From Patescibacteria group bacterium (GTDB lineage Bacteria; Patescibacteriota; Microgenomatia; UBA1400; MFAQ01), in the NCBI GenBank assembly GCA_943355005.1, contig CALRDV010000002.1, positions 131,826 through 195,825 on the forward strand: 64,000 bases of DNA. The letters are read 5' to 3'. Positions 6,844 to 60,310 of this stretch are shown piece after piece (within the stretch, counting starts at the first letter, position 1; every line of letters starts with the position of its first letter). The notes below the pieces were generated by a model. It was not told the origin of the DNA. It saw nothing but the letters and a program-made list of their open reading frames with translations, and ran no database searches. The position numbers and the translations under genes are program-made.

Positions 6844-6917
6844 CTTTGGGTTATATTAGTACAATTCCTCATTGATTGTACCAACTTGACCTTATGAGGG
6901 CAATTATTTTTCTTCTG

Positions 6918-7001
6918 CGGAGGAGGTGGGATTCGGACCCACGAGCGCCGGAGCGCACTCGCTTTCCAAGCGAGCGGAATAGACCACTATCCGACTCCTC
7001 C
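6918..7001 (-). tRNA. tRNA-Ser (anticodon GGA), type II with long variable arm
   Basis: The reverse complement is GGAGGAGTCGGATAGTGGTCTATTCCGCTCGCTTGGAAAGCGAGTGCGCTCCGGCGCTCGTGGGTCCGAATCCCACCTCCTCCG. It has anticodon loop TTGGAAA, a long variable arm and T-arm. Confidence 0.8.
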
Positions 7002-7042
7002 AAGTGAGCAAATGAAAAATTCCTTATTTTTCAGTTGCGAGC

Positions 7043-7066
7043 GCGGAGGTGTTGGATAACTACTGT
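7043..7066. repeat. Near-perfect 18-nt palindrome GGATAACTACTGTTATCC
   Basis: Seen directly in the sequence, downstream of tRNA-Ser(GGA). Its function is unknown; it could be a protein-binding site or part of a terminator. Confidence 0.4.
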
Positions 7067-7109
7067 TATCCGAACTCCTCACACAAACTAACACTCGAAC
7101 TTGTATATT

Positions 7110-7859
7110 TTACCTTAACTTGTCCAAGGCTGCGAGGAATTCACCGATTTCGTTAATGACCACAGTTCTCTCAGGCACCTCACCCTCCCTGTACACTGCC
7201 CAAGGACTAGGCATGTAGATTGTTCTCGACCCCAGTTCATCTCCTGGTTTGATATCCCCACTCAAACTATCTCCCACCACCAAACACCTTTCCGGCGCAA
7301 TTTCCATCGCATCCATTCCTCTTTTCCAATCAATCGATTTTTTGTGTCCATTCTCGTCCACAATCACCACAGTTTCGAAATAATTCCACAGACCAAGACT
7401 ATCTAGTTTGAAGTTCGTCCATTCCACATTCGCATGAGTCACTAGTACCATTTTGACTTTAGCTTTCTTCAAAACTTCCAGCGCCACCTTAGCCCCCTCC
7501 CGCATTCTAGGAACAATAGAGTAAATTCTCATTAACATATCTAAATTTTCCACAATCTCAGATTCACTTCCTTCGAATTCCTTTGCCAACTTCTCCACAA
7601 CTACCGCCCATCTTTTGGGGTTTACCCCCATCTTTTTATGTTCCTCATCATTTATGGGTTGTAATGCTCCCATAATTCTATCCTCTCCTACCCCAATCTT
7701 CTCAGCCACTTCCTCGGCATATTCCTGCATGCACTGAATGAATATTTCACTTGTGTAAATCAAGGTATCATCCAAATCGAAAAATACACCATCAACACCT
7801 AATCTTTTAAGTTTTTCTCCCACCGCGTCACAAACAGGATCGTTTTCCAGTTTAAACAT
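7110..7859 (-). CDS. HAD superfamily hydrolase
   Basis: N-terminal FFDLDDTLIY (HAD motif I) and downstream Asp-containing motifs (VVGDSLSGDI). Confidence 0.7.
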   Translation of the reverse strand: MFKLENDPVCDAVGEKLKRLGVDGVFFDLDDTLIYTSEIFIQCMQEYAEEVAEKIGVGEDRIMGALQPINDEEHKKMGVNPKRWAVVVEKLAKEFEGSESEIVENLDMLMRIYSIVPRMREGAKVALEVLKKAKVKMVLVTHANVEWTNFKLDSLGLWNYFETVVIVDENGHKKSIDWKRGMDAMEIAPERCLVVGDSLSGDIKPGDELGSRTIYMPSPWAVYREGEVPERTVVINEIGEFLAALDKLR

Positions 7860-7897
7860 GCCATATTCTACACCCAGAAACTAAAGAAAATTAATTG

Positions 7898-8060
7898 TGT
7901 ACCCGGTGCGATTCGAACGCACAACCTCGACCTGAGGGGTCTGAGATATTTTTAGAATTATCAATATCTCCCTTGAGGAGATATTGGTAATTAATTTGCA
8001 AAAATATCGAAGAATGCCGGAACCGATCTCGTAACGAGCTCGGTGAGGCGGGGGTGAAGG
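7898..8060 (-). pseudogene. tRNA-Arg-like 3' fragment fused to a degenerate copy of the hairpin repeat element (pseudo-tRNA / chimeric element)
   Basis: The ~31 nt GGTTGTGCGTTCGAATCGCACCGGGTACAC, equal to the T-arm plus 3' acceptor strand of the adjacent tRNA-Arg(CCG), is present. Upstream of it no D-arm or normal anticodon arm can be folded. Instead there is an 8-bp palindrome (ATATCTCC CTTGA GGAGATAT) and a hairpin, CCGAGCTCG-TTA-CGAGATCGG, homologous to the hairpin of the elements at 10489-10854. Confidence 0.45.
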
Positions 8061-8106
8061 TAAAGACGAAGTCTTTAATCCTGAACACAACTAAAAAAAC
8101 TATTTG

Positions 8107-8180
8107 TGTACCCGGTGCGATTCGAACGCACAACCACTTCCTTCGGAGGGAAGTACTCTATCCAGTTGAGCTACGGATAC
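8107..8180 (-). tRNA. tRNA-Arg (anticodon CCG)
   Basis: The reverse complement is GTATCCGTAGCTCAACTGGATAGAGTACTTCCCTCCGAAGGAAGTGGTTGTGCGTTCGAATCGCACCGGGTACA, with anticodon loop CTCCGAA. Confidence 0.8.
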
Positions 8181-8194
8181 ATACAGGTATTATC

Positions 8195-8524
8195 TCACTC
8201 CCCCTTTTTATTCCACACCCTTTTATTATTTATTTCCTCTTTCTCCCGGAACGCCTTCTCAGCATCTATGTTTAAATGGTTAGCCAAATCAATCACATAG
8301 CTAAATACATCAGCCCATTCATGATCTAACTCCATCTTCTCCGAATTATCATCAGTATGCATTTTGGTATATTGTCTCGCAGCTTTAGCGAGCTCTCCAA
8401 CTTCTTCAGAAAGATACATAAACAGTTCAGGGACCGTTGTGTCAGTAAAGTCTCTCTCAATCACCATCTCATTTATATACTCCTGATAATCTCCCAAAGA
8501 CGCTTTATCTTTAATTTTCTTCAT
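8195..8524 (-). CDS. MazG-like nucleotide pyrophosphohydrolase domain protein
   Basis: 109 aa with the EEVGELAKAARQY ... E..DV pattern of the all-alpha NTP-PPase (MazG) fold. Confidence 0.6.
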   Translation of the reverse strand: MKKIKDKASLGDYQEYINEMVIERDFTDTTVPELFMYLSEEVGELAKAARQYTKMHTDDNSEKMELDHEWADVFSYVIDLANHLNIDAEKAFREKEEINNKRVWNKKGE

Positions 8525-8568
8525 ACATCAAAAATTATTATATTTAGCCGGGTCTATCCACCGGTGGG

Positions 8569-8650
8569 CGGAGGATACAGGAGTCGAACCTGTTAGCCCA
8601 AAAGGGCATTGGTTTTCGAAACCAACGCATTACCGTCCTGCCCATCCTCC
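8569..8650 (-). tRNA. tRNA-Ser (anticodon CGA), type II
   Basis: The reverse complement is GGAGGATGGGCAGGACGGTAATGCGTTGGTTTCGAAAACCAATGCCCTTTTGGGCTAACAGGTTCGACTCCTGTATCCTCCG, with anticodon loop TTCGAAA and a long variable arm. Confidence 0.8.
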
Positions 8651-8693
8651 ATCGACTCGCCGTAGCTTTAGCAGAGGCGGTCATCGACATTTG

Positions 8694-8768
8694 TGAGCCC
8701 GGTGCGACTCGAACGCACGACCTCCTCCTTCGCAGGGAGGCGCTCTAATCCAACTGAGCTACGGACTC
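8694..8768 (-). tRNA. tRNA-Arg (anticodon GCG as read; could be ACG-type isoacceptor)
   Basis: The reverse complement is GAGTCCGTAGCTCAGTTGGATTAGAGCGCCTCCCTGCGAAGGAGGAGGTCGTGCGTTCGAGTCGCACCGGGCTCA, with anticodon loop CTGCGAA. Confidence 0.75.
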
Positions 8769-8806
8769 ATACGAGCTCTATTTTATCATCCTACGGGTCT
8801 TTCTCC

Positions 8807-9307
8807 TCATTCCAAGGGCATCTTCTCTCCCGCCCATTTCAAAGCTCTGTCTACCCAGGTCACAGCCGGCTCCTGGTATATCACCTTTTCTAACATCAAA
8901 TTCTTAATTTCATCCTCCTTTTTAGGATCAATTACCACCACCAAATGCCATGGAACGATAGATAGATTTATCCTCATGAGCCTAGTACCCCACTTAGTCT
9001 CAAACCAAAAATTAGTCATCTCTTCATACCTGTAAGTCTTCTCTGTCGATTTTAATCCCCAAGAAGTCAAAGCTGTTTTTATCATCTTCGGTTCAGTCTT
9101 GGCCATGGCCCAAAGCATGAATACAAGCGCCCAAATAACCACTACGGGCATCAGACCCTCAATAAAGTACATAATTATAGACACGAGGAAAGCAATCACG
9201 ATTACGGAACTGTAAAATTCTTTCGTCCAAACTTTATGAGGCCTATCATATGCCTCAAATTCCAAAAGTTCTTTTTCACTGAAATCTAAAGTGTCGGTTT
9301 TAGCCAC
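8807..9307 (-). CDS. Hypothetical membrane protein
   Basis: 166 aa with two central hydrophobic helices (VIVIAFLVSIIMYFIEGLMPVVVIWALVFMLWAM). Confidence 0.4.
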   Translation of the reverse strand: MAKTDTLDFSEKELLEFEAYDRPHKVWTKEFYSSVIVIAFLVSIIMYFIEGLMPVVVIWALVFMLWAMAKTEPKMIKTALTSWGLKSTEKTYRYEEMTNFWFETKWGTRLMRINLSIVPWHLVVVIDPKKEDEIKNLMLEKVIYQEPAVTWVDRALKWAGEKMPLE

Positions 9308-9329
9308 ATTTCATCTTAGCATAAGGCTC

Positions 9330-10085
9330 TCAAAGTAACTTAAATGAAAACTGTGCATCAGATATCACAGATTCGTTGTCCGGCCAAGTTACCATTGGAC
9401 CCGATGCAGTAGCCGCGTAACCATAACCTTTATTGACCGTAATTAAACTTCTACGCCTCATGTCGACCCCACCTACCACATAGTTTCCACCTATCAAATA
9501 ATAAGGTTGGCCTTTTAAGTAAAACAAAGAATCATTTTCAAATACAAAATCAGGAAAATCTTTTGATGTTTTATCTTTAATACTTTTAATTTGATCTGAC
9601 AAAGAACTCTCCTCAACGTTGCGTTTTTCCACAGTTAAGATTGTCGCATAATTAATATTTCCAATTGTTTTTGTAGTTGGATTCAGAAATATCACGATGG
9701 CTCCTGTTTTACCGGTTTCATCTAGCTGCCACCCTGACGGAGGAGTAATTTGAAAACCCTCTTTTTCATTTTTATAAATTCCTCCCCCAATTACACCACT
9801 TTCAGTTGATTGTGAATTGTTTAAGGTGACTACTTGGTTCTTGTTAGTACTAGTCTTTGTAGGCATCGTAATCTCTAGGTCAGGAGCCTCACCCGTCCCT
9901 CTTAGCATAACAATAATAATTAACAACACAACAGGACCAATCCCTAAATATACCAACCATCTCCATGGAATCTTTTTGGAAGGCACCTTTTCAGTTTCCG
10001 TATTCTTCTCTACAAATACCGGAATATCCACTAATACTTGCTGATTTTTTTCACCCTCTTTCTGAATTATATTTTCGAGCTCCAT
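9330..10085 (-). CDS. Hypothetical membrane-anchored protein
   Basis: 251 aa with an N-terminal TM helix (WRWLVYLGIGPVVLLIIIVML), then a Thr-rich linker and a globular domain. No motif recognised. Confidence 0.4.
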   Translation of the reverse strand: MELENIIQKEGEKNQQVLVDIPVFVEKNTETEKVPSKKIPWRWLVYLGIGPVVLLIIIVMLRGTGEAPDLEITMPTKTSTNKNQVVTLNNSQSTESGVIGGGIYKNEKEGFQITPPSGWQLDETGKTGAIVIFLNPTTKTIGNINYATILTVEKRNVEESSLSDQIKSIKDKTSKDFPDFVFENDSLFYLKGQPYYLIGGNYVVGGVDMRRRSLITVNKGYGYAATASGPMVTWPDNESVISDAQFSFKLL

Positions 10086-10127
10086 AACTTCAGTTTAAAC
10101 CATCTGGGCGGACCTGTCCGCCGGTAG

Positions 10128-10212
10128 GCGGAGGGGGCGGGATTCGAACCCGCGGTATCTTGCGATACGGAGGTTTAGTAAACCTCTGCACTCGACCACT
10201 ATGCGACCCCTC
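10128..10212 (-). tRNA. Type II (long variable arm) tRNA with atypical anticodon loop, reading ACU with a canonical 5-bp stem. Identity uncertain: Ser/Leu-like, or a pseudogene.
   Basis: The reverse complement is GGAGGGGTCGCATAGTGGTCGAGTGCAGAGGTTTACTAAACCTCCGTATCGCAAGATACCGCGGGTTCGAATCCCGCCCCCTCCG. Acceptor, D-arm, long variable arm and T-arm are good. The anticodon stem GAGGT/ACCTC encloses loop TTACTAA. Confidence 0.55.
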
Positions 10213-10217
10213 CACGG

Positions 10218-10299
10218 GCGGAGAGTACAGGGGTCGAACCTGTTAGGGCTTACGCCCATTAGTTTTCAAGACTAACGCATTACCGTCCTGCCCACTCTC
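10218..10299 (-). tRNA. tRNA-Ser (anticodon TGA), type II
   Basis: The reverse complement is GGAGAGTGGGCAGGACGGTAATGCGTTAGTCTTGAAAACTAATGGGCGTAAGCCCTAACAGGTTCGACCCCTGTACTCTCCG, with anticodon loop CTTGAAA. Confidence 0.8.
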
Positions 10300-10359
10300 C
10301 GTGTGTGCTTATTTTACCATTCCAAGTGCCTCTACTGGTAAAATAACTCTTGATCGTGA

Positions 10360-10441
10360 TGGAGGCGTCCGATAGTGGTTATTCGAGCGGGTTGCTAACC
10401 CGCGGCCCAAAAGGCCTCGTGGGTTCGAATCCCACCGCCTC
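10360..10441 (+). tRNA. tRNA-Ser (anticodon GCT), type II
   Basis: GGAGGCGTCCGATAGTGGTTATTCGAGCGGGTTGCTAACCCGCGGCCCAAAAGGCCTCGTGGGTTCGAATCCCACCGCCTCCG, with anticodon loop TTGCTAA. Confidence 0.8.
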
Positions 10442-10488
10442 CGCAAATTAAGTCTATTCGCCTTGCGCGAGTAGACTTAAATTTCGTT

Positions 10489-10592
10489 CGTGGGATTCGA
10501 ACAAGCCGGAACTAGTTTCGTAACGAACCTAGTGAGGCAGGTCTTGAGGCACCGAAGGTGACCGAAAGCGAATCCTTCTCCCACCGCCTCCG
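10489..10592 (+). repeat. tRNA-derived structured element, copy A (104 nt; possible small ncRNA)
   Basis: It starts with GTGGGATTCGAAC, the reverse complement of a T-arm. It ends with GCGAATCCTTCTCCCACCGCCTCCGC, whose last 14 nt are identical to the 3' end of tRNA-Ser(GCT), i.e. T-stem 3' strand + acceptor 3' strand + discriminator. It has an internal hairpin CTAG-T-TTCG-TAA-CGAA-C-CTAG and a duplicated heptamer TGAGGCA. It is followed by a strong bidirectional terminator. Confidence 0.6.
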
Positions 10593-10593
10593 C

Positions 10594-10637
10594 TAAAAAT
10601 AAATGTCCTCGCTTGTCGGGGACATTTATTTTTACCT
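10594..10637. terminator. Bidirectional rho-independent terminator
   Basis: A 14-bp perfect stem, AAAAATAAATGTCC / GGACATTTATTTTT, flanked by A-run and T-run. Confidence 0.7.
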
Positions 10638-10750: not shown

Positions 10751-10854
10751 TGTGGGATTCGAACGAGTCGGAAGCAGTTTTGTAACAAACCTGCTGAGAC
10801 AGGTCCTGAGACACAGCAGGTGACCGAAGGCGAATCCTTCCCCCACCGCCTCCG
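10751..10854 (+). repeat. tRNA-derived structured element, copy B (104 nt)
   Basis: It is collinear with copy A at ~85% identity. The hairpin stems show compensatory changes (GCAG-T-TTTG-TAA-CAAA-C-CTGC). The duplicated heptamer is TGAGACA in both repeats, a concerted G-to-A change relative to copy A. The 3' end, CCCACCGCCTCCGC, is identical. Confidence 0.6.
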
Positions 10855-10915
10855 CAATAGAAAATTCTCGCGACACGTCCTTGCCTATTCTTTTTTTATT
10901 TGAGAAGATAAGTTA

Positions 10916-12502: not shown

Positions 12503-13256
12503 GGTTGTGATGATGAATAAATTTTTTGTCCCCGTAAAGCTTTTCCATCTCGGATTTTACAAACTTCTTTGGGTTTTCGTCATAAGTTAAAGCTCTATTA
12601 ACGAAAGCTATCTCTGTAACTTCATTAACTACCGCTTCAATATCGTGCGAAATAAACACAAGTGTCAATTCCAGCTCATGATTTAGTTTTTTTAGTAAGT
12701 GATAGAACTGATCTTGAGCTTGTACATCCACTCCTGCCATCGGTTCATCCAGGAATATCACATCAGGCTGTCCCGCGAGAGCTCTAGCAATGAACACTCT
12801 TTGCTGTTGCCCTCCTGACAGATCTCCAATAATCCTATCTTTAAAATCGTACATTTCTACCTGTCTTAGAGAATCGCTAATAATTTTCTTGTCTTCTTTT
12901 CTCAGGTTCTTAAACAATCCAATTTTTCCAAACCTTCCCATAGCCACCACTTCATACACTGTTGCAGGAAAGTTAACGTCAAAATTAATCACCTTTTGTG
13001 GTACATACCCTACTCTAGTCCAATCCTTGAAGGTATGAATATCTTCACCAAACATCTTGACTACTCCCTTAGATGGTTTTAGTAACCCCAAAATAATTTT
13101 TATCAGCGTTGTTTTTCCTCCCCCGTTAGGACCAATCACCCCCAAATAATCACCTTTATGAATATTCAAACTAACTTTCTCCAATACAAGATCCTCATTG
13201 TAAGCAAAGCTCACTTCTTCAATTTCGATAATGTTTTGTGTGTGATCTACCGGCAT
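12495..13256 (-). CDS. znuC: Metal ABC transporter ATP-binding protein
   Basis: Walker A GVIGPNGGGKTTL, signature LSGGQQQRVFIARAL, Walker B VIFLDEP. Confidence 0.85.
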   Translation of the reverse strand: MPVDHTQNIIEIEEVSFAYNEDLVLEKVSLNIHKGDYLGVIGPNGGGKTTLIKIILGLLKPSKGVVKMFGEDIHTFKDWTRVGYVPQKVINFDVNFPATVYEVVAMGRFGKIGLFKNLRKEDKKIISDSLRQVEMYDFKDRIIGDLSGGQQQRVFIARALAGQPDVIFLDEPMAGVDVQAQDQFYHLLKKLNHELELTLVFISHDIEAVVNEVTEIAFVNRALTYDENPKKFVKSEMEKLYGDKKFIHHHNHA

Positions 13257-14170
13257 TCTAGTGCAATTTTTAAGTTTGCTAAATTTTCCTCCATTAAAGT
13301 TAAATAATTTTTCCCTTGCTTTGCATCATTATCACTTATTCCTTCAATCGGGTCTAATACTAAGGTTTTTGCCCCAATCTCTTCAGCTACTGTCTGAGCC
13401 AGCTTTGGACTTACCAATTTTTCAAAAAATATGTACTTCAGATTTTCTTTCTTCGCTAGATTAGAAATCTCTACAAGCTGTTTAGTAGATGGCTCCTCAT
13501 CCGGACTTATCCCGGATATCGAAATTTGTGTTAATCCGTACTCTCGTGTCAAATATCCAAACGCATCATGTGAAGTCACCACTTTGTGTTCCTTGCATTG
13601 CGACAATCCCACTTTAAAGTCCGCGGACAATTTATCCAACTTAGCCAAAATCACTGTTTGATTTTCCAGATAATATCTCGAATTTGATTCATCCATCCTA
13701 ATCAGCTCCATTGTTATCATTTCTACTTCTTTTTTAGCCAACTCTGGCGAAAGCCATACATGGGGATCATTATTCTCCATTAGTCCGGTAGCTAACTCAA
13801 CGACCTTAGCCCCGTCTTTTGCTATTTTTGTCGCCCAAGATTCAAAGCCACCACCATTTATAAAGACTAATTTGCTTTTTTGAATCTGCACCAAATCTCT
13901 GGCAGTCGGTTCGTAATCGTGTGGCTCAACTCCGGAAGGGGTAATGTTTATGACATTAACCTTATCTCCCCCAATTTCCTTGACAAAGAAATAAACCGGA
14001 TAAAACGAAGTCACCACTAACGGTTTTATTTCACTGTCATTGCGAGGCACTGAGTGCTGTGGCCCGCTGGTACCCGAAGGGGTGAATCCAGGATAAATAT
14101 CAATTAATCCCAAAACAGCTATCACAAAAATAAAAACCAATATTACCGTTAGAATCGTATTTCTCTTCAC
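13247..14170 (-). CDS. znuA: Metal ABC transporter substrate-binding protein (TroA/ZnuA, cluster 9 SBP). It carries an in-frame palindromic-repeat insertion after the signal anchor.
   Basis: An N-terminal signal anchor, a His/Asp-rich metal site (HDYEP, HVWLSPE) and the two-lobed SBP pattern. Residues TPSGTSGPQHSVPRNDSE are encoded by a copy of the dispersed repeat family, cattgcgag...ggcccgctggtacccgaaggggtgaatcc. Confidence 0.8.
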   Translation of the reverse strand: MKRNTILTVILVFIFVIAVLGLIDIYPGFTPSGTSGPQHSVPRNDSEIKPLVVTSFYPVYFFVKEIGGDKVNVINITPSGVEPHDYEPTARDLVQIQKSKLVFINGGGFESWATKIAKDGAKVVELATGLMENNDPHVWLSPELAKKEVEMITMELIRMDESNSRYYLENQTVILAKLDKLSADFKVGLSQCKEHKVVTSHDAFGYLTREYGLTQISISGISPDEEPSTKQLVEISNLAKKENLKYIFFEKLVSPKLAQTVAEEIGAKTLVLDPIEGISDNDAKQGKNYLTLMEENLANLKIALECR

Positions 14171-14188
14171 TGCTATTATTGTAATAGA

Positions 14189-14863
14189 TTAATGGGCCAA
14201 TGCCAGCCCCCACACAATTTCTACTCCGGCTTTCTTAAGGACTTTCGTGCATTCCCTCATGTCGGCACCACTGGTAAAAACATCATCCACTAGCAATACT
14301 TTTTTAGCTTTCAGTCTTCCGGACCATTCTTTGCCGACAGAAAACACCCCTTTTATGTTTTCCTCTCTTTCTTCCCTTGTCTTCATTAACACTTGTTGTT
14401 TTGTATTTTTGTTTCTCCTTAACACCCTCTCTATTTTGACACCTGGCATCTGAGATCCAATAACTTGCCCCAGCAATTCCGCTTGATTAAACCCCCGCCA
14501 ATTTTCCCGATAATAATACAATGGCACCGGAACCAGCAAATCAAAAACAATTCCTGTTTCAAACCTGAAATCTCTAAGAACTATACCCGCCAAATCCTTA
14601 TTAAACCCATATTTGATCCCATCCACCACTGCTCTCATGATCGGTTCCTTATATTCAAAAATGGCTATCAACCCATTCATTCCACTTGGTGAATCACACC
14701 TCGGATGAGTCCACCCCATAGGAGAACCTTCACCACACTCAGGACATATCTGGTCTATCGTGTCCAGTCTTTCCATACAATCCTTACACAAAAAGCTTCC
14801 TATTTCTTTGCACCCGACACATATCTTTGGGTATACAAAATCTATAATTGCCTCCAAAATCAT
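14189..14863 (-). CDS. comFC: ComF family protein (competence protein ComFC, PRTase-like)
   Basis: N-terminal Cys-rich zinc ribbon (CVGCKEIGSFLCKDC ... CPECG) and a C-terminal phosphoribosyltransferase motif, VLLVDDVFTSGADM. Confidence 0.8.
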   Translation of the reverse strand: MILEAIIDFVYPKICVGCKEIGSFLCKDCMERLDTIDQICPECGEGSPMGWTHPRCDSPSGMNGLIAIFEYKEPIMRAVVDGIKYGFNKDLAGIVLRDFRFETGIVFDLLVPVPLYYYRENWRGFNQAELLGQVIGSQMPGVKIERVLRRNKNTKQQVLMKTREEREENIKGVFSVGKEWSGRLKAKKVLLVDDVFTSGADMRECTKVLKKAGVEIVWGLALAH

Positions 14864-14889
14864 ATCTAATCTTAATGTAAAATAGCCTT

Positions 14890-15327
14890 GTGAGTGTCCA
14901 AAACAAAAAAGCCTATTTTGATTACGAAGTTATCGAACCTTACGAGGCGGGAATTGAGCTGACCGGAGCCGAAGTTAAGAGCGTTAGAGGTGGTGGTGCC
15001 AACTTTGCCGGCGCCAGAGTCCTCATCCGTGAAGACGGTGCCTACTTATCAGGCCTAAATATTCAGAAATACAAATTCGCCACCGATCCTGACTATAATC
15101 CCTCCCGTATCCGCAGGCTCCTCCTACACAGGAAAGAAATCGTGGCTATGAACACCAAAATGAGGTCGGCAGGTTTGACTTTAGTGCCTCTGAAGCTGTA
15201 TAATAAGGGCAGTCTCGTGAAGGTGCAAATCGCTCTAGTCCGAGGCAAGAAGAAGTTCGAAAAGAGAGAGTTGATTAAAAAAAGGGTCTCAAACCTGAGC
15301 ATAGCGAGACGTTTAAAAAACCAATAG
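14890..15327 (+). CDS. smpB: SsrA-binding protein SmpB
   Basis: Canonical SmpB sequence throughout (KKAYFDYEVIEPYEAGIELTGAEVKS ... RIRRLLLHRKEI ... LTLVPLKLYNKGSLVKVQIALVRGKK). Confidence 0.93.
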   Translation: MSVQNKKAYFDYEVIEPYEAGIELTGAEVKSVRGGGANFAGARVLIREDGAYLSGLNIQKYKFATDPDYNPSRIRRLLLHRKEIVAMNTKMRSAGLTLVPLKLYNKGSLVKVQIALVRGKKKFEKRELIKKRVSNLSIARRLKNQ

Positions 15328-15585
15328 ATGAAAGGACAAAAAATGGATCTGTTCTGGACTAAAATTATGCCCGAATGTGTTTCTAAGTACCCTTGGGCAG
15401 GTGAATTCACGGCTAAAATGAGCTTAAAGAAATTTCAAGAAGGTGTTAAAGCCAAAATTAAAGCTATGGACGAAAACGAATTTGACCTCTTCTTGGCCGC
15501 CGTTGTCATGCAAGCCAGTCGCGATCAAATGATGGGTGTTAACCTTACTGAAAAAATCGGTTTTCTCCGAGGTCTCCGCGCCTAA
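15328..15585 (+). CDS. Hypothetical small protein
   Basis: 85-aa ORF that starts 1 nt after the smpB stop. Confidence 0.35.
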   Translation: MKGQKMDLFWTKIMPECVSKYPWAGEFTAKMSLKKFQEGVKAKIKAMDENEFDLFLAAVVMQASRDQMMGVNLTEKIGFLRGLRA

Positions 15586-15694
15586 CACTCACCACCCAAC
15601 CACTGTCATTCCCGACCTGAGTGGGCCGCTGGTACCCGAAGGGGTAAATCCATAAAAGTTGACCTCTACGCTCATTCATGATATTATAAGACAT

Positions 15695-16109
15695 GGGGAC
15701 GACAGGATTCGATGGGATAGTACGTTTACAGTTGCAAGCCTCCTTTGGTAATAGGAGTCAAAAAGACCAAAAAATACTTGTCAATAAAGAAGACAAAATA
15801 CTTGGTTTCATCTCTAGTGGAGTTAAATCCCTTTTTGGTGAAGTCAAATCTTCCGCTCCCGTTTACGCTTTTGCCTAAATAGTAGCTTTGAAGACGTCTT
15901 GAGAGCCAGCGGATCCCGGGCTTCTCACAAGGCGAAAAAATACCGGATTGAATGCTTCAGGTTTGATTTAGGCCTGAGGACTAACTTTTCTAAATCGACC
16001 ATAAGGTGTTCTTGTTTGCCTGAAGCTTTATGGAAAATCGGCAAACTACGCTTGTAGACTCTGTAGGCTTAATATTTCAGACGAGAGTTCAATTCTCTCC
16101 GTCTCCACA
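15695..16109 (+). ncRNA. ssrA: tmRNA (SsrA), ~413 nt
   Basis: The 5' end GGGGACGACAGGATTCGATGGGA pairs with the 3' end CGTCTCC-A-CA to form a tRNA-like acceptor stem. The 3' T-arm is GAGAGTTCAATTCTCTC. The internal tag reading frame ends ...SSAPVYAFA followed by TAA TAG. It lies immediately downstream of smpB and is followed by a terminator hairpin. Confidence 0.8.
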
Positions 16110-16113
16110 TAAA

Positions 16114-16146
16114 ACAAAGACCCTTCCTTGTGAGGGGTCTTTGTTT
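16114..16146. terminator. Bidirectional terminator hairpin
   Basis: CAAAGACCC-TTCCTTGTGA-GGGGTCTTTG followed by TTT. It sits between the ssrA 3' end and the stop of the convergent 649-aa gene. Confidence 0.6.
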
Positions 16147-18094
16147 ATCTCACCACCCCTACTGTTCCTGCATACAATACCAACAATTGACCTTGTTCAT
16201 CAAATTCAATATCTCCGGCACCAATGAACCTACCTGATTTTAGGACCTGATTGCACACACCCGTATCCTTGAGACAAACAATTACATTTCCCGAGGTACT
16301 ATCAAGAAGAGCTAATTTTGTTCCATTCTGATCTACAGCAATTCTTTTTACTTTTAGATTCACCGGTAATCCACTTAGAGAGAACTGTTCTTTAGCTCCC
16401 CTTCTGAATCTATCCACTTGTCCATTAGAGGCTACTATCCAGATATCCGTATCCATAGCCATATCAACGGGCTCAAACGAAATAACCTGGTCTTGCTTCA
16501 ACCATCTTGTTCTGTCACCAAAACCATCCGCCACCCCGGCGTATTTATATATTTCTTTATTTCCCTGATCCAATACATACAAATTACTTCCAAACTTTCC
16601 TATAGCCACCGGCTTTGCCACTGCAGCATCAAATTTAATTAAGTCCGCTCCCGTCAAAGCATCTCTTACCCCTCCCGAACTTAACATCATAGGTTTACTG
16701 GCCTCTCCTGCTACATCTACCCATCCCAACCCCTCACCTTTTCCGGCCACGACTTTGATATCCTTTGTTTTGGAGTCTGCTGTTACCACCACCCCCATTA
16801 AAGAATCGAGTGACTGAAACTGCGACCCCTTAATAAGCCCCAACCTCTCTCCTTTAAAACCTTGTCTTACCAAATCAATTCTCAAAATCTCATCAACTTC
16901 ACTTTCTTTCTCTCCTGAAGCTGATGTCCAACCATCGTTAATCTTTTTTTCCAAATCCAACAAGTCTTTCTTATATTTACCGGATTCAAACTGGCTTCTA
17001 CCGGAACTAAATTCTGCCTTTACGTCTTCTATCAATTTCTTTGCCCCGGAAGGATTAATACTTATTAAATTTCCGGCCTCCTGAAGACTTTTTTCAATAG
17101 GATCGGAAAAACTTTGCCATTTTTTAAGTTCGGCAGTCTGCTTTATTTTTATGGACCCGGTTATCAAACTTACCAACAATAACACCAAGAATATGAGACC
17201 CAAAAGCATCGACCATTTTTTTCTTTTTACATTCTCTTTTCTGTCCACCAAACCCTTTTGTTTTACTTGACGGAAACCTATCCATTTATTTATCAATTTT
17301 TCCTTAAAACCCAAAGGTCCAACCAATCTGTCTTGAGCTAAATCAAAAGAAGGTCTATTCTCAGTCATTTCAGAATCTTCTTTTACATTGCCCGAAAAAT
17401 CCTCTTCAATATCTTTTATTTCAGATCCCAATTCAGCCACCGGTACCGTAACTTTAAAATTACTATTTTCTACAACTTCAAAATCTTTGTCTTCCATCCC
17501 CACCTCCATCAATTTACCAAAGTTAAAAATAAGCCCGGCAGCTGCATTACCCATATCCACAAGTTCTTTACTCCACTGAGAAATATCCACTTCCGTAGAT
17601 TTAGGTAGTTTATCAGACATCTGTTCGGGGAATATTCCAGAACAAATAACCAGTTTATCTCCCTCCTCCACCACCCCTTTTACCACCTTACCCGGAATTA
17701 AATTTTTTGAAAAATCAAACTCTTTTTCTTGTCTTACCAATGTCACCACTCCCTCACCCCATCTTGTAATTCTTATCTCACGTTTACCATCTCGAACATT
17801 TATCCACACCCACACTCCGGTCATGTCAGGGTATTTTTTCTGCCAACTGTTTCCAAAATCACTCAAATCACCCAAAGAGTCCAATTTATTGAAGTACTCC
17901 TCTACCCATCCCATCAATTCTGCATCGATTTCAGCCCAATCATCTCTCTTTTCTCCAAGTACAACTCCAAAAAGAGCTCCTTTGTTCTGCAATTCTTGAT
18001 CATCATACGGAATTCGTGCATAAATCTGTGCCCATCCATTTGAGCCTTCCTCGTTTACAATTCTCCAAAAAGATAGTCCTAAACCGGTATTCAT
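16145..18094 (-). CDS. Large hypothetical protein with a central TM helix
   Basis: 649 aa. The N-terminal ~270 aa is a soluble domain, there is a central hydrophobic helix (WSMLLGLIFLVLLLVSLITG), and the C-terminal ~330 aa is rich in G/V/D repeats and may be a beta-rich domain. Confidence 0.45.
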   Translation of the reverse strand: MNTGLGLSFWRIVNEEGSNGWAQIYARIPYDDQELQNKGALFGVVLGEKRDDWAEIDAELMGWVEEYFNKLDSLGDLSDFGNSWQKKYPDMTGVWVWINVRDGKREIRITRWGEGVVTLVRQEKEFDFSKNLIPGKVVKGVVEEGDKLVICSGIFPEQMSDKLPKSTEVDISQWSKELVDMGNAAAGLIFNFGKLMEVGMEDKDFEVVENSNFKVTVPVAELGSEIKDIEEDFSGNVKEDSEMTENRPSFDLAQDRLVGPLGFKEKLINKWIGFRQVKQKGLVDRKENVKRKKWSMLLGLIFLVLLLVSLITGSIKIKQTAELKKWQSFSDPIEKSLQEAGNLISINPSGAKKLIEDVKAEFSSGRSQFESGKYKKDLLDLEKKINDGWTSASGEKESEVDEILRIDLVRQGFKGERLGLIKGSQFQSLDSLMGVVVTADSKTKDIKVVAGKGEGLGWVDVAGEASKPMMLSSGGVRDALTGADLIKFDAAVAKPVAIGKFGSNLYVLDQGNKEIYKYAGVADGFGDRTRWLKQDQVISFEPVDMAMDTDIWIVASNGQVDRFRRGAKEQFSLSGLPVNLKVKRIAVDQNGTKLALLDSTSGNVIVCLKDTGVCNQVLKSGRFIGAGDIEFDEQGQLLVLYAGTVGVVR

Positions 18095-18115
18095 TGTTGG
18101 GCAGGTGTTCCTTTC

Positions 18116-18337
18116 CTAAGCTAATAGTACTATAACAGTCACAAAAAGAGACAGAAGAAAGTACCCCCAAGTTAGAACTTTCAAGCTTCCACCGATGGGA
18201 AAGTTAACTACATTGTTCATTAAGTTTTCTTGGCGCACCATTACAAAAGACAAAATCAGAACCAGAACCATCGATATCTTTACCATAACTCCGACTATCA
18301 AACTTAAATTTATGACTAGTCCGGGTATTATTTCCAT
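18116..18337 (-). CDS. Small membrane protein, hypothetical
   Basis: 73 aa with two hydrophobic helices. Confidence 0.3.
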   Translation of the reverse strand: MEIIPGLVINLSLIVGVMVKISMVLVLILSFVMVRQENLMNNVVNFPIGGSLKVLTWGYFLLSLFVTVIVLLA

Positions 18338-18343
18338 ATATTG

Positions 18344-19024
18344 TTATTCCTGATTATTTTGATCATCATGCTCTTCAATTAATTGTGAAATTACCGCCAC
18401 CACTTTGTCAGGGTAAGCTATAGACTCAAAAGTAAAAGCCGAAGATTCATCTCTCGCGTTCGGAACATTCTGTTTTGAGGCAGTTTCTACAATCACATCA
18501 CCGTAATTAAAGAAACTGGCAAGCATCCCTCTTTGAGAATAATTAACATCTTCAATTTTGTTCAGTTGACATACGTTGACATTTTTACTCAGTAGCCCCA
18601 CAAAATCAACATCTATTATTCTCTCATTTGTCACTATGTAAACATTGTAAAACCACATTAAAAAATTCTGCAGTCCGTAAAAAGCCAGAACCATATACCA
18701 AAGCATTGTCATACCAATCAGAGCATTTCCGTCCAACATTTTAATAAAAGGAAATTCTTTCCAAAACATCGGTATAAATAATGAAAAAGAAACTACTGTT
18801 ATCCACCCCAGATTCCTAATTATATGTTTCCTACCCAAAATTACGATTTTTTCATCTTCTTGTTGAGATTCAAACTTTGACCATTCAGGAATCGCCACCA
18901 AAGATCCCCACTGGCTACGAGGACATGATCCTAAAATCTTTTCCACATCATCAACCACATTCTCTGATTTCTTGGCTTTAAAAATCTCCGGCATACCTAA
19001 TTGTACCAAACACCACGTCGTCAT
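18344..19024 (-). CDS. YdbT/YdbS-like bacterial PH (bPH_2) domain membrane protein
   Basis: A two-TM hairpin (RNLGWITVVSFSLFIPMFW ... MLWYMVLAFYGL) followed by a domain containing IVTNERIIDVDF and ending GDVIVETAS, as in bPH_2. Confidence 0.55.
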   Translation of the reverse strand: MTTWCLVQLGMPEIFKAKKSENVVDDVEKILGSCPRSQWGSLVAIPEWSKFESQQEDEKIVILGRKHIIRNLGWITVVSFSLFIPMFWKEFPFIKMLDGNALIGMTMLWYMVLAFYGLQNFLMWFYNVYIVTNERIIDVDFVGLLSKNVNVCQLNKIEDVNYSQRGMLASFFNYGDVIVETASKQNVPNARDESSAFTFESIAYPDKVVAVISQLIEEHDDQNNQE

Positions 19025-19320
19025 TGCGAGACTCGACTTTAGGTCGGCCGTGGCAATCCCACACCACTGTCATTCCCGACCCGCTTCGCCATAGCTTCAG
19101 CGAGGCGAGCCTGAGTGGGCCGCTGGTACCCGAAGGGGGAAATCCCCCTCCACTCGTCATTGCGAGGAGTGAAACGACGTGGCAATCCCACACCACTGTC
19201 ATTCCCGACCTGATCGGGAATCTATATAGATAAATACCAATTTTTAACACCATGACTACTAGCACTTAGAGTTACGAGTGAGTACGGTTTTTGGCGGGCT
19301 TCGAAACGCGATAAAAAAAT
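19017..19320. repeat. Intergenic cluster of dispersed palindromic repeat elements (composite of at least four repeat types)
   Basis: Two copies of cgtcattgcgag-[hairpin]-gtggcaatccc, two copies of (cac)tgtcattcccgacc(tgatcgggaatc), one copy of gagtgggccgctggtacccgaagggggaaatcc, and one copy of agttacgagtgagtacggtttttggcgggcttcgaaac. The same units recur at more than 15 other places in the window. Confidence 0.8.
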
Positions 19321-19323
19321 TGA

Positions 19324-21078
19324 CTATTTTTTCTCAATATTAAACAATCCACTCTTCAGTGATATCTTCCCCGGCGCCCTCAAAGTAAATACTTTGTAAT
19401 ACTCTTGTCCAGAAACCTGGAAAGATCCTCTATTGGTTTGGAAAACAACATTAGCCGTCTGTCCATTATCTCCATAAGTGATACTTAGACTACTAACACT
19501 TGTAATCGCCCCGCCTTGACTATTTGCCTCATTCTTCATCTGTTCCATACTCCAAGGATCACCAGATTTATTAAAACAACCTACATAATCAATAGGCAAA
19601 ATGTGTTCTACCCCACTACCACTCCGATACACAATAATCGCGTTTAAGATATCCGACATCTCCGATTCATTTAGCCAAGGATGAGATCTCCCGCAGCTTT
19701 CCTTGTTTTCATTTCTATACCAAGCCTTATAAAACCACGGACTACCGGCAGTTTTTTCATAAGCTTGCGACGTCCACCCACTTCTCCCTGTCGGCGTATC
19801 CCAAAGCGAAGGAGTCGTATATCCCGCATAGTTATCTGTATAAGACTCTTGATACCCGCCTGATGTTGAAGCATACCAAGATTTAAATGGTTTTCCGTTG
19901 TTCATCATTACCCAGCCTCGAGTTGCATTTACAGCTTCTTCCCACTTCCCCCCCTTATTACTATTTTTATACACCTGGCATGCTTGAGTCGTACAGATTG
20001 CTCCTCCTCTGCCTTCATCTGTCCAAGCAAGAACGTAAGACCTCGCCGCTACGGCTTGTGCCTTCAGAGCTTCCATTCCTCCGTTATCCCCCCAACCACC
20101 GGGCATCTCATAAATTCTCTTGACATATGTTTCTATATCCATTCGTCCATACCCTTGGACACTTATTTGTTTCCCAGCATCATAATCTTTCTTGATAGAG
20201 ATACTTCCTCCGTAATAAGCATGAAGAATATCATCCGCGTTTTGTCCGGCCTTAGCTCTGCCATAAGCTCCATACTGACTCATTCCCTTAAAGTGAGGTG
20301 CCCCAAAAGAAAACGAGGCAAATGCAGGGGAAAATCCAGGGTTGTAATCCGGTCTGGAAGCAGGATCGTCTGCTAGAGGCACATCACCTACTGTTGTTTG
20401 AAAATTTCCTTGTTTCTCAGCCAGTAGTGATTGCTGCTGAGCCGACAAAGCTGCGATTTTCCCGGACAGATCTTTTTGGTATGCTTTCGCTTTGGCCACT
20501 TCTCCAAAGAAGAAGCTGTTCTGCTTATCCAGCTCTGTCTGAAGCTTAGCCAATTGTTCTTTCTGAGTCTCCAAGTTCTTTTTATCTATCTCAAGTTGGC
20601 CTATCTCAGTTACCAAATTTACTATTACAGCCTTATCCCTATCACTACTTTCTTGTCTATAGTTCAGCTCCAATCTGGCTTCACCCATGCTTGTTTTAGA
20701 TAACAGGCTCGCCCATAAAGGCTGTGACCTAAGCCGGATATACATTTCTCTTATCTTTGCAGACAAGACGACATATTGCGTCGAAACCTTCTCACCTCGA
20801 TCTTTTATACCCATTTCTGTTGCCTTAAGTTTCGTAACCGCTAGATTTATCTGTGATTGAATCGATTTAATCCTGGCATTTAGCTTCGTAATTTCCGCTT
20901 CGAGTGGCACCGTAGCATTCTTACTCGCCTGCAAAGAACTATTTAATTCTCCTATTTGAGCTCCCAAACAAGTAATTAGTTCATCCCCGCTTTTGCCATC
21001 GCAGCTAGTATCTGCCTTTACTAGTCCGGCAAAAACACTGAGCAAAACCACCATGATTAATAAATATCTCCACTTCAT
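19324..21078 (-). CDS. SpoIID/LytB domain protein with an N-terminal signal peptide and long coiled-coil region
   Basis: The C-terminal domain has the SpoIID/LytB signature (GMSQYGAYGRAKAGQNADDILHAYYGG, ALKAQAVAARSY). The N-terminal ~250 aa is coiled-coil. Confidence 0.7.
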   Translation of the reverse strand: MKWRYLLIMVVLLSVFAGLVKADTSCDGKSGDELITCLGAQIGELNSSLQASKNATVPLEAEITKLNARIKSIQSQINLAVTKLKATEMGIKDRGEKVSTQYVVLSAKIREMYIRLRSQPLWASLLSKTSMGEARLELNYRQESSDRDKAVIVNLVTEIGQLEIDKKNLETQKEQLAKLQTELDKQNSFFFGEVAKAKAYQKDLSGKIAALSAQQQSLLAEKQGNFQTTVGDVPLADDPASRPDYNPGFSPAFASFSFGAPHFKGMSQYGAYGRAKAGQNADDILHAYYGGSISIKKDYDAGKQISVQGYGRMDIETYVKRIYEMPGGWGDNGGMEALKAQAVAARSYVLAWTDEGRGGAICTTQACQVYKNSNKGGKWEEAVNATRGWVMMNNGKPFKSWYASTSGGYQESYTDNYAGYTTPSLWDTPTGRSGWTSQAYEKTAGSPWFYKAWYRNENKESCGRSHPWLNESEMSDILNAIIVYRSGSGVEHILPIDYVGCFNKSGDPWSMEQMKNEANSQGGAITSVSSLSITYGDNGQTANVVFQTNRGSFQVSGQEYYKVFTLRAPGKISLKSGLFNIEKK

Positions 21079-22899: not shown

Positions 22900-22990
22900 A
22901 GCTGTACATAGGAGCCGAAGGGAATCCCGCTAATGCGGGACGAGATAGTTACGAGTGAGTACGGTTTTTGGCGGTCTTCGAACCAACAAG
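22900..22990. repeat. Dispersed repeat copy (agttacgagtgagtacggtttttggcggtcttcgaacc type plus flanking unit)
   Basis: Matches 19265-19315 at ~90% identity. Located between the uppS and polyprenyl synthetase genes. Confidence 0.6.
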
Positions 22991-38080: not shown

Positions 38081-39136
38081 ATGGCTATTCAACAGCATCC
38101 ACTACCACAGGACATTAGCTCCTATCGCTTCCGCCTAATTGGCGATATGACTATCAAGCAGTTTGCCTCTCTTGGCATCTGTATTGTTTTAGCCATTATT
38201 GCGTACAGTATGCCCCTCCCTTTCTTTTTTAAATACCCTTTAGCCTTTATGTTTATCGTACTAGGCGTAGGTATGGCTTTTGTCCCCGTTCAAGGACGTT
38301 CTCTGGATGTTTGGATTCTTGCTTTTATCCGTTCCATTTATTCTCCGACTCAATATACATGGAAACGTTCTGAAGAAACTGTTTCAAATGAAATGTCTAT
38401 GAAGAGTAATGGAGTGGGTACTCAAGCAGTTACAAACGCCAGAATCGAACTCACCCAAGCTCCCGCTTCAGTCCCCAATACTCCATCTGTCTCCATCACC
38501 CCTCCTGCATCAGAGCCAAAAACAGAAGAGAGACTCGAAATAACTCCTCCACCATCCGTCATTGCGAACCCGCCTTCAGAGGGTGTGGCAATCCAGGCTA
38601 CAAATCAAACCGAAGTCCCAGTTCCTGAATTAGGAAAAATTATAACTTCCTTAGCCCCAGTAATACCTACCGAGCCGGAAAAACCCACCCAACCAATAAC
38701 ACTTACTGTCATTCCGGGCTTGACCCGGAATCCATCTGGTACATCAGACGCCCAATCGACACCATCCGTCATTGCGAGAGACCTACCCGCTGTGGAAGGA
38801 GCACGGCAATCTAGTTTACCAGCCACCCCATCAACTAACCCTCCCCAGCAAACCCAGCTCCCCATCCCCTACACCCCCACTACCCCAAACACTCTCGTTG
38901 GACTTACGTTGTCTCCGGAAGGTAAAATTTTGGACGGGGTCATGGTAGAAATTCAGAGAAACGGTCTAACTTCCAGAGCCACCAAAAGTAACAAACTTGG
39001 CCAATTTATGTTCGCCAGACCTTTGGAAAATGGCTTGTATCAAATCCTCGCCGAAAAAGATTCTTTTACCTTTTCACCATACTCTTTAGATCTTACCGGC
39101 ACTATTATCCGACCTCTTAAAATCCAAGCACAATAA
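38081..39136 (+). CDS. PrgI/VirB3-like membrane protein with C-terminal carboxypeptidase-regulatory-like domain. It contains in-frame palindromic repeat insertions.
   Basis: The N-terminus (YRFRLIGDMTIKQFASLGICIVLAIIAYSMP ... AFMFIVLGVGMAFVP) has the two-TM PrgI-like pattern. The C-terminus (LTLSPEGKILDGVMVEIQRNGLTSRATKSNKLGQFMFARPLENGLYQILAEKDSFTF) resembles a CarboxypepD_reg beta-sandwich. The central Pro/Thr linker includes VIPGLTRNPSGTS and PSVIARDLP, which are encoded by copies of the dispersed repeats. Confidence 0.45.
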   Translation: MAIQQHPLPQDISSYRFRLIGDMTIKQFASLGICIVLAIIAYSMPLPFFFKYPLAFMFIVLGVGMAFVPVQGRSLDVWILAFIRSIYSPTQYTWKRSEETVSNEMSMKSNGVGTQAVTNARIELTQAPASVPNTPSVSITPPASEPKTEERLEITPPPSVIANPPSEGVAIQATNQTEVPVPELGKIITSLAPVIPTEPEKPTQPITLTVIPGLTRNPSGTSDAQSTPSVIARDLPAVEGARQSSLPATPSTNPPQQTQLPIPYTPTTPNTLVGLTLSPEGKILDGVMVEIQRNGLTSRATKSNKLGQFMFARPLENGLYQILAEKDSFTFSPYSLDLTGTIIRPLKIQAQ

Positions 39137-49242: not shown

Positions 49243-49277
49243 TTGTCATTCCCGACCCGATCGGGAATCCATTCTCT
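49243..49277. repeat. Dispersed palindromic repeat copy (gtcattcccgacccgatcgggaatcc)
   Basis: Located immediately after the rnpA stop codon. Stem TTCCCGA/TCGGGAA. Confidence 0.7.
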
Positions 49278-60228: not shown

Positions 60229-60310
60229 TCGTCATTCCCGACCTGATCGGGAATCTATATAGATCGTCATTGCGAGTTTCGGTATTCCGAACCGCGGCAA
60301 TCCAGGTTAA
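60229..60310. repeat. Two adjacent dispersed palindromic repeat copies upstream of valS
   Basis: gtcattcccgacctgatcgggaatc followed by cgtcattgcgagtttcggtattccgaaccgcggcaatcc. A third copy is at ~60415-60450, and a perfect 12-bp inverted repeat (CCCTCGTCAATC...GATTGACGAGGG) is at ~60322-60362. Confidence 0.7.

Follow-up and report, generated by a model that had tools for sequence, protein, structure and literature searches.

The NTS/dRS3 repeats of Neisseria (NTS, Neisseria Transformation Sequence) have been regarded as intergenic signals connected with transformation and recombination. The NTS, CGTCATTCCCGCGMAVGCGGGAATCYRG, takes in the dRS3 repeat and is bound, only as single-stranded DNA (ssDNA), by SsnA, a 94-aa single-domain GIY-YIG nuclease (Chenal et al. 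2025, Nat Commun; PMC11893778). SsnA cleaves a few nucleotides upstream of the NTS and on the forward strand only; cutting depends on the three bases that precede the palindrome, and binding on the C that follows it (PMC11893778). Related repeats, termed SRM ('Ssn-related motif'), and ssn genes are widespread, often in the arrangement NTS-ssn-NTS, and the replication-coupled ssDNA transposition of IS200/IS605 insertion sequences has been discussed as an analogy (PMC11893778). A second relevant system is the Rickettsia palindromic element (RPE), a repeat of ~150 bp that is found in frame in Rickettsia genes and encodes a conserved peptide (Ogata et al. 2000, via PMC10969869). Here we analyse a 64,000-nt stretch, referred to as the window, of a contig from an uncultured, Collierbacteria-like Patescibacteria group bacterium, in which the znuA gene carries a short hairpin repeat within its reading frame. 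We conclude with good confidence that this stretch of znuA is a translated and tolerated copy of a dispersed hairpin repeat. The element class itself is already described, as the NTS/dRS3 or SRM hairpin repeats (PMC11893778). What appears undescribed in the literature searched is the frequent in-frame occurrence of NTS-like units in housekeeping genes of the Candidate Phyla Radiation (CPR), their strand rule and a nested 21-nt module. The terms 'in-frame', 'lagging' and 'Patescibacteria' are absent from PMC11893778, and nothing relevant was found in the literature on CPR with repetitive extragenic palindromes (REPs) or intragenic palindromes.

The znuA gene (13247-14170, minus strand) encodes a 307-aa substrate-binding protein of a metal ATP-binding cassette (ABC) transporter, of the ZnuA/TroA family (PF01297), with a GTG start at 14170 in the list of open reading frames (ORFs). 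The repeat unit lies at 14036-14089. Its GTCATT-to-AATCC direction is on the plus strand, antisense to znuA, where it reads GTCATTGCGAGGCACTGAGTGCTGTGGCCCGCTGGTACCCGAAGGGGTGAATCC. The 54 nt make exactly 18 codons without a stop and encode residues 28-45, GFTPSGTSGPQHSVPRND, in the antisense frame ending ...R-N-D. The 5' part of the unit, GTCATTGCGAGG (14036-14063), is of the type designated R2, with the inner hairpin GCAC-TGA-GTGC followed by TGTGGC; these first 28 nt, GTCATTGCGAGGCACTGAGTGCTGTGGC, match an ordinary R2 unit, GTCATTGCGAAGCACGAAGTGCTGTGGCAATCT, of the syntenic locus L001 at 25 of 28 bases. The following 21 nt, CCGCTGGTACCCGAAGGGGTG (14064-14084), previously labelled 'R3', are placed between the 3' stem arm and AATCC and have their own hairpin, ACCC-GAAG-GGGT. 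Alignment of the units (A2) resolves the znuA copy into an R2 unit of 33 nt plus this 21-nt module. The initial annotation of this DNA had located a repeat in the ZnuA reading frame, between an N-terminal anchor and the mature domain, and the peptide that it quoted, GLIDIYPGFTPSGTSGPQHSVPRNDSEIKPLVVTSF, agrees with the translation of the minus-strand ORF 13247-14170. Its bounds, 14040-14100, have to be shifted to those given above. Its view of the repeat as a composite of R2-like and R3 units is correct as judged by the R2 match, and is more exactly expressed as an R2 unit with a 21-nt module before AATCC.

Related units recur throughout the window. A search with the family pattern GTCATYSY..RATCY, for which 2.7 matches would be expected, gave 17, every one on the plus strand, and curation gave 19 units with the same orientation. 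They range in length from 26 to 77 nt and have a G+C content of 60%, compared with 41% for the window. All share the 5' end GTC-ATT and the 3' end AAT-C(C/T), with a variable stem-loop between them (A2). R1 is a 26-nt hairpin, GTCATTCCCGACCTGATCGGGAATCC, whose copy at 19198-19223 folds as DNA at -7.6 kcal/mol (z = -3.5). R2 has the outer arms GTCATTGCGA...GTGGCAATC and an inner hairpin that varies from copy to copy; the R2 unit in znuA of a Collierbacteria locus, L003, folds at -11.4 kcal/mol (z = -4.7). Outside the stem, the GTCATT and AATCC ends do not mirror one another as inverted repeats, and no duplicated flanks, as left by target-site duplication, were seen at the window copies inspected. 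Rfam models at gathering thresholds detected only tRNAs and the transfer-messenger RNA (tmRNA) over the whole window, leaving the units uncovered, and a search at E <= 1 over 13900-19400 returned the tmRNA alone, with no RNA family over the units. Among the 19 units, the sense frame 0 is open in 18, the antisense frame 0 in 17 and the antisense frame 2 in all, whereas the antisense frame 1, which contains TGA, is open in none. These mostly stop-free frames help explain the survival of in-frame copies.

As the aligned sequences indicate, 'R3' does not form a unit by itself but is a 21-nt module that interrupts an otherwise ordinary R1 or R2 unit, directly after the last base of its 3' arm and ahead of AATCC. 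The R3 core, CCGCTGGTACCCGAAGGGGT, is present three times in the window (at 14064, 15626 and, with one mismatch, 19120), and none was expected in 100 dinucleotide-preserving shuffles. The module copies, 14064-14084, 15626-15646 and 19120-19140, have the form CCGCTGGTACCCGAAGGGGT(A/G), also given as CCGCTGGTACCCGAAGGGGTR. Those outside znuA belong to intergenic R1-type units on the plus strand, one at 15605-15651 between an 85-aa ORF and the tmRNA gene, the other a long unit at 19069-19145 (bearing the mismatched module) in a cluster of four units at 19020-19223. The intergenic R3 copies that had been reported near 15600 and 19100 are real. L001 has a unit cluster at the same intergenic site as 19020-19223. 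Furthermore, the identical module occurs at the identical junction, before AATCC or GATCC, in at least 17 different R1/R2 scaffolds from metagenome contigs (L128-L184), and a module variant is carried by a canonical NTS scaffold 10 kb outside the window, in the flank of the source contig (L185). No target-site duplication is visible at the module in the compared scaffolds. With the module in place the outer stem is split, and the predicted folding of module-bearing units does not surpass that of shuffled sequence.

The host gene is identified as znuA on several grounds. The N-terminus of the translated protein is MKRNTILTVILVFIFVIAVLGLIDIYPGFTPSGTSGPQHSVPRNDSEIKPLVVTSF, and a protein database search gave 6700 homologues, with an identical database copy, P0001, carrying PF01297. 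The znuC and znuB genes, encoding ABC_tran and ABC-3 proteins, lie downstream, and the order comF-znuA-znuC-znuB is the same in the window, L001 and L003. The metal-site columns H84, H137 and H201 are invariant (alignment A1). ZnuA combines the attributes of a cluster A-I substrate-binding protein, namely PF01297, the metal-ligand histidines and the adjoining genes of an ABC ATPase and a permease. Its hydrophobic N-terminal stretch, MKRNTILTVILVFIFVIAVLGLI, aligns with the N-termini of orthologues. An AlphaFold2 model computed with a 32-sequence alignment has a mean predicted local distance difference test score (pLDDT) of 86.6 and is confident outside the linker. It shows a 23-residue helix comprising residues 3-25 (coding sequence 14096-14164, minus strand), which together with the orthologue alignment delimits the membrane anchor, then residues 26-45 with a pLDDT below 50 and a first domain strand at 51-54. 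The residues encoded by the unit are accordingly predicted to form a disordered tether between the anchor helix and this strand. The initial annotation had spoken of a lipobox/linker position for the insertion; there is no Cys in the N-terminus of ZnuA or of the aligned orthologues and therefore no lipobox, and the long hydrophobic helix of the model suggests an uncleaved signal anchor, which is a better fit than a cleaved signal peptide.

The GTG start of znuA is common to L001 and L003. Since this start and the anchor lie upstream of the unit and are conserved in both loci, the unit must be translated for ZnuA to be exported. The database copy P0001 (292 aa) was called from an internal GTG, codon 16, so that the anchor is truncated and the repeat unit still included. 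The GTG at 14170 is likely the start of znuA, and the database call (14126-14170 region) likely uses the wrong codon.

The closest orthologues have no repeat unit in the linker. The closest non-identical homologue, P0002, with 71% identity, comes from the fully syntenic locus L001; read from its true GTG start, L001 ZnuA has ...GLWRIMPEVQDSQNSELPTVTTS and no unit in the linker. P0003 (65% identity), which reads ...SITGKTSSKIETGKP, is likewise without a unit; the linker of these closest orthologues has 15 residues. The absence of the stretch from L001 and P0003 bears out the orthologue comparison by which the initial annotation had proposed to check its claim. The situation that it had named as speaking against the claim, a linker conserved in orthologues lacking R2/R3 copies genome-wide, is not what we observe: the L001 linker lacks the stretch, and of the 7 pattern matches in the 12.8 kb of L001, six are R1/R2 units. 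On the other hand, the ZnuA linker of L003 (Collierbacteria, GCA_001000865.1) contains a complete R2 unit, RLPHPDGIGVRND, encoded by GTCATTGCGAACCCCGATTCCATCGGGGTGTGGCAATCT, and a decayed R2 unit, differing in its inner hairpin, occupies the same codon position in that of locus L187. Both are read in the same antisense frame as the window unit and at nearly the same codon. The orthologue P0004 (L188) has a longer linker with no recognisable unit. This recurrence points either to a hot spot (or a sole tolerated site) in the ZnuA linker or to replacement of units in situ.

A separate observation concerns MiaA. In two different miaA genes, a module-bearing unit is found at one and the same N-terminal position (L159, 4368-4414, and L165, 11678-11731), on an R1-type scaffold in one and an R2-type scaffold in the other, which parallels the three ZnuA linkers with their different R2 units. 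The MiaA pair suggests a hot spot or in-situ replacement as well.

In-frame units are not restricted to znuA. Seven of the 19 window units are intragenic, and they are distributed over four genes, encoding ZnuA, valyl-tRNA synthetase (ValRS), TsaD and a PrgI-like protein. The ValRS gene (58074-60221, minus strand) has an R2 unit at 58389-58421, with GTCATT on the plus strand, that is read antisense and in frame as RLPRHSAPRND and falls within ~19 extra residues relative to Thermus thermophilus ValRS (1gax). Two units of the same strand in the tsaD gene (60850-61947, minus strand), at 61156-61200 and 61216-61241, are also antisense and in frame and are read as RFLDSRHGVPVARND and WIPGQARND. TsaD residues 232-270 have no counterpart in 6nak, which corresponds to a ~32-aa insertion between residues 223 and 231 of that chain. 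The gene of the PrgI-family membrane protein (38081-39136, plus strand; PF12666 match at residues 8-91) contains three units (38558-38594, 38708-38733 and 38768-38812) in a Pro/Thr-rich region, all on the plus strand and read in sense and in frame. In other CPR-like contigs, module-bearing units are in frame in the genes of MnmA, TatD, MiaA (twice) and an NYN protein, and the 10-kb flank of the source contig adds five units within called genes. A module-bearing unit in LigD precedes the first recognised domain and maybe lies upstream of the true start, which makes its intragenic status only possible. Across loci, the units are read in at least five frames. Hence the initial claim that the elements colonise linkers of exported proteins as well as intergenic DNA is right for ZnuA and for the intergenic copies and too narrow otherwise, given the copies in the essential, cytoplasmic enzymes ValRS and TsaD of this genome and, with the module, in MnmA, MiaA and TatD.

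These data bear on whether the peptide in ZnuA is of use to its host. The Pro/Ser/Gly/Thr-rich stretch (TPSGTSGP...) could have been kept as an adaptive exaptation, a longer flexible tether helping the binding protein to reach the permease, the repeats then supplying linker material to positive selection. Three ZnuA lineages have R2-type units at nearly the same linker codon, the peptide is linker-like and predicted to be disordered, and linker length varies among orthologues. Moreover, RNGDG, RNRDV and VNDK remnants are found in several Collierbacteria-like orthologues where L003 has RNDG, suggesting long retention. However, a 15-residue linker without a unit suffices in the closest orthologues, and the same units occupy loops of unrelated cytoplasmic enzymes and intergenic DNA, which fits tolerance and not a benefit specific to ZnuA. 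We consider the adaptive explanation improbable; the peptide encoded by the unit is probably a neutral passenger.

The units also obey a strand rule. GTCATT is on the same strand in all units of the source contig that were counted, with ratios of 19:0 in the window and 5:0 in the flank, or 24:0 for the two together. GC skew is negative throughout the window, GTCATT being on the C-rich strand. Because the host genes occupy both strands, the orientation of the units is independent of transcription. GTCATT is likewise on the C-rich strand in low-G+C metagenome loci (46:7; 17 loci vs 4, p = 0.007) and in Collierbacteria-like loci (23:2). A cross-phylum sample of R1 has no orientation bias (37 vs 51), and the rule is claimed only for CPR-like contigs. 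The G-rich strand is usually the leading strand. If this is the case here, the cleavable forward strand would be kept off the lagging-strand template, and the orientation could result from strand-specific insertion or from selection against self-cleavage at the fork.

The resemblance to the NTS is found at several levels. Both are oriented hairpins of ~26 nt, with the flanks CGTCATTCCCG...CGGGAATCY in the NTS and GTCATTCCCGACCTGATCGGGAATCC for R1 of the window, and L001 carries an NTS-like unit, GTCATTCCCGCGAAAGCAGGAATCC. The GTCATT/AATC columns, invariant in R1, R2 and module-bearing units (A2), correspond to the published determinants, GTC before and C after the palindrome. R1 and the R2 of L003 are short imperfect palindromes with a predicted ssDNA hairpin, the znuA composite being weakly structured. 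Finally, mosaic intergenic clusters and a distribution over many phyla are common to both, and a possible further parallel is the ~90-aa single-domain GIY-YIG gene that adjoins units in a Flavobacteriales genome and on another contig of the window's assembly. By flanks and architecture, the units are thus NTS-like at the sequence level, though not by the SRM pattern discussed below.

To what extent a GIY-YIG enzyme accompanies the units was assessed over a wider set of loci. More than 120 loci, spread over many phyla, contain the R1 25-mer pattern; in a Flavobacteriales metagenome-assembled genome, inverted exact copies of the R1 25-mer flank a single-domain GIY-YIG gene on both sides. When ORFs within 600 bp of 120 cross-phylum R1 loci were clustered, no recurrent family emerged, as expected for dispersed copies. 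No ORF of the window matched a GIY-YIG motif expression, and a wider expression applied to 1.36 Mb of loci identified two true genes only, in L046 and L135/L155. The protein of L135, a module-bearing contig, has close homologues in Collierbacteria, Daviesbacteria, Woesebacteria and other Patescibacteria. One of these homologues, P0126, a 93-aa protein with PF01541 as its only domain, comes from the assembly that also includes the window (ERZ27280309), its gene lying on the 223-kb contig k141_147785 (L193, 2001-2390). An R1 unit forms its C-terminus, ...DWIPGQARNDKS up to the stop, and the next ~110 nt contain three further units, making four abutting units. The gene order at this locus is GIY-YIG, adk, nadD-like, with Collierbacteria-like synteny. 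P0126 is 39% identical to the NTS-flanked Flavobacteriales protein, and the nearest solved structures to the GIY-YIG protein are the UPF0213 proteins 1zg2 and 1ywl. We regard P0126 as a candidate cognate nuclease of the units and propose, tentatively and with somewhat more doubt than trust, that an Ssn-like nuclease underlies their spread.

A different origin would be mobilization unrelated to the Ssn GIY-YIG enzymes, as REPs in bacterial interspersed mosaic elements (BIMEs) by a REP-associated tyrosine transposase (RAYT, an IS200/IS605-like Y1 transposase), or as MITEs, the miniature transposable elements with inverted repeats, by the transposase of an insertion sequence. Short oriented hairpins in mosaic intergenic clusters do resemble REPs in BIMEs, and the strand-asymmetric orientation is reminiscent of IS200/IS605, whose ssDNA transposition is coupled to replication. 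A REP, by definition extragenic, carries another conserved head and comes with a Y1 HUH enzyme. The units show neither a GTAG-type REP head nor terminal inverted repeats or target-site duplications, and no Y1 or other transposase gene was found in the 84 kb of the source contig covered by Pfam labels in the flanks and ORF inspection. Instead, their flanks are those of the NTS, and a GIY-YIG gene abuts units in the same assembly. This makes a REP or MITE origin quite improbable, and the absence of terminal inverted repeats and target-site duplication likewise separates the units from MITEs.

It could also be argued that the unit is not translated at all, znuA starting further downstream or being a pseudogene, with the anchor ORF in frame by chance. 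The database call P0001 indeed uses another, internal start, GTG codons exist at V52 and V53, and a random 18-codon stretch of this composition would be stop-free in ~30% of cases, as estimated from base composition. Nevertheless, the P0001 call at codon 16 is still upstream of the unit, the anchor and GTG start are conserved in L001 and L003 and the anchor also in P0003, and a binding protein without anchor or signal would not be exportable. All 31 aligned homologues other than P0001 have a continuous linker from the N-terminal region to the domain; most homologues as called carry an N-terminal hydrophobic segment, and the few truncated calls (e.g. P0002) regain it upstream, as shown for L001. 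The ZnuA domain is also fully conserved, metal ligands included. An untranslated unit is therefore very improbable. Finally, although this is a k141 short-read metagenome assembly and repeats are classic misassembly points, a repeat-induced chimera joining the anchor to the znuA body is the least credible explanation, hardly to be entertained, since the unit, at 54 nt, does not reach the length of the assembly k-mer, the sequence on either side of it is from one gene with frame and anchor intact, the comF-znuA-znuC-znuB order matches L001 and L003, and independent assemblies have units at the same place in other ZnuA genes.

Taken together, the favoured explanation, a translated and tolerated copy of a dispersed repeat, could be cast in the following scenario. 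The unit would have reached znuA by the process that spreads these repeats, and this process would most likely act on ssDNA with the participation of a small single-domain GIY-YIG (Ssn-like) nuclease. Selection would then keep only the copies that preserve the frame, in surface loops or linkers, as is known of the RPE, and the copy in znuA would be tolerated as an added disordered tether.

A number of observations weigh against this scenario. First, 54 nt in the window stand for 21 nt in L001, giving a net gain of ~12 aa and not 18; a clean 54-nt insertion into the present orthologue linker is ruled out by this replacement. The databases searched hold no relative nearer than 71% identity and no same-species allele with an empty site. 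The znuA unit itself is weakly structured as DNA, folding at -9.4 kcal/mol against -6.6 for shuffles (z = -1.5), and with its outer stem split by the module it may be an immobile relic. The published activity of Ssn is ssDNA cleavage affecting transformation, and not repeat movement (PMC11893778). The published SRM pattern, HGTCWYN(0-2)YYVSBRHN(0-5)WNVSBRGN(0-2)RNCYNB, which was built from 29 genomes (PMC11893778), has 0 matches on both strands of the window. Inspection by hand shows that it fails at the loop and 3'-stem positions of R1 while the flanks fit; with the mismatch in the loop and stem letters and not in the flanks, the pattern was set aside as a criterion of membership. No GIY-YIG gene is encoded in 84 kb of the source contig (window plus 10 kb on each side). 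The GIY-YIG proteins have only sub-threshold NCBIfam hits, with no model for the Ssn clade (cd10448), and the Collierbacteria loci L189-L192 show no units within 2 kb of the homologous GIY-YIG gene. In addition, the assignment of k141_147785 to the organism of the window, which we infer, rests on a shared assembly accession, similar G+C and Collierbacteria-like synteny only.

A more far-reaching interpretation is that, in Collierbacteria-like CPR, the NTS-like units constitute an active ssDNA system tied to a resident Ssn-like GIY-YIG nuclease. Such a system would write short cassettes into the chromosome with a single orientation with respect to replication, would time and again strike or rewrite the same codons of orthologous genes (the ZnuA linker and the MiaA N-terminal loop) and be parasitised or extended by the 21-nt module at its fixed junction. 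We hold this to be unlikely, but, if true, tiny genomes would have a hitherto undescribed way of reshaping loops in their essential proteins.

Other features of the window deserve mention. Intergenic units upstream of the ValRS gene extend over 60231-60443 on the plus strand (R1 at 60231, R2 at 60266 and R1 at 60418). Between the two R1 units of this ValRS-TsaD spacer, there is a near-perfect 12-bp hairpin, ccctcgtcaatc...gattgacgaggg (60325-60362), over which a database gene call places an 81-aa ORF. The units at 49245, 54252 and 57951 start 5-18 nt past the stop codons of plus-strand genes and might act as 3'-end hairpins; no T-run follows them. For the tmRNA gene (15695-16108), the predicted tag, VNKEDKILGFISSGVKSLFGEVKSSAPVYAFA, is unusually long; 44 nt upstream of the gene there is a module-bearing unit, and L001 has an R2 unit at the same site. 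A 36-nt repeat, AGTTACGAGTGAGTACGGTTTTTGGCGGGCTTCGAA, unrelated to the GTCATT family, is found in two 97% identical copies (19270-19305 and 22947-22982), each directly downstream of the stop codon of a minus-strand gene. A 118-nt direct repeat (10490-10607 and 10752-10869, 82% identical) adjoins a cluster of five tRNA-Ser and two tRNA-Arg genes (6917-10444).

The units share some traits with the known systems that they most resemble and differ in others. With REPs and BIMEs they share short oriented imperfect palindromes arranged in mosaics, a small dedicated enzyme being presumed in both cases to act on the ssDNA hairpin (PMC11893778); by contrast, seven of 19 units here are intragenic, and no RAYT-type gene was seen in the window or its flanks. 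Compared with the NTS, the intragenic units are translated, R2 has a variable inner hairpin, the 21-nt module sits at a fixed junction, and orientation tracks strand composition in CPR-like contigs. In a reduced CPR genome, an NTS-class element is routinely translated, within the tether of a transporter protein and within loops of ValRS, TsaD, MnmA, MiaA and TatD, and it follows a strict strand rule. The orientation rule and the nested module provide testable predictions on Ssn-type nucleases and replication. On the practical side, the units account for many odd RND, VIP or SLRG stretches and for small spurious ORFs annotated in CPR; such in-frame passengers should be anticipated in gene calling and in orthology pipelines, as the wrong start codon of the database ZnuA call illustrates. 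The closest parallel for the translated copies is offered by the RPE, where selfish palindromes are likewise in frame in unrelated housekeeping genes and the extra peptide is compatible with fold and function (PMC10969869); the corresponding hosts here are ZnuA, ValRS, TsaD, PrgI-like, MnmA, MiaA and TatD. Compared by description, RPEs are ~100-150 bp long, whereas the present units have 26-77 nt, are read in several frames, belong to an NTS-like class and reside in a CPR/Patescibacteria host. The notion of 'selfish DNA in protein-coding genes', established in Rickettsia, is thereby extended to another reduced-genome lineage and to a much smaller element.

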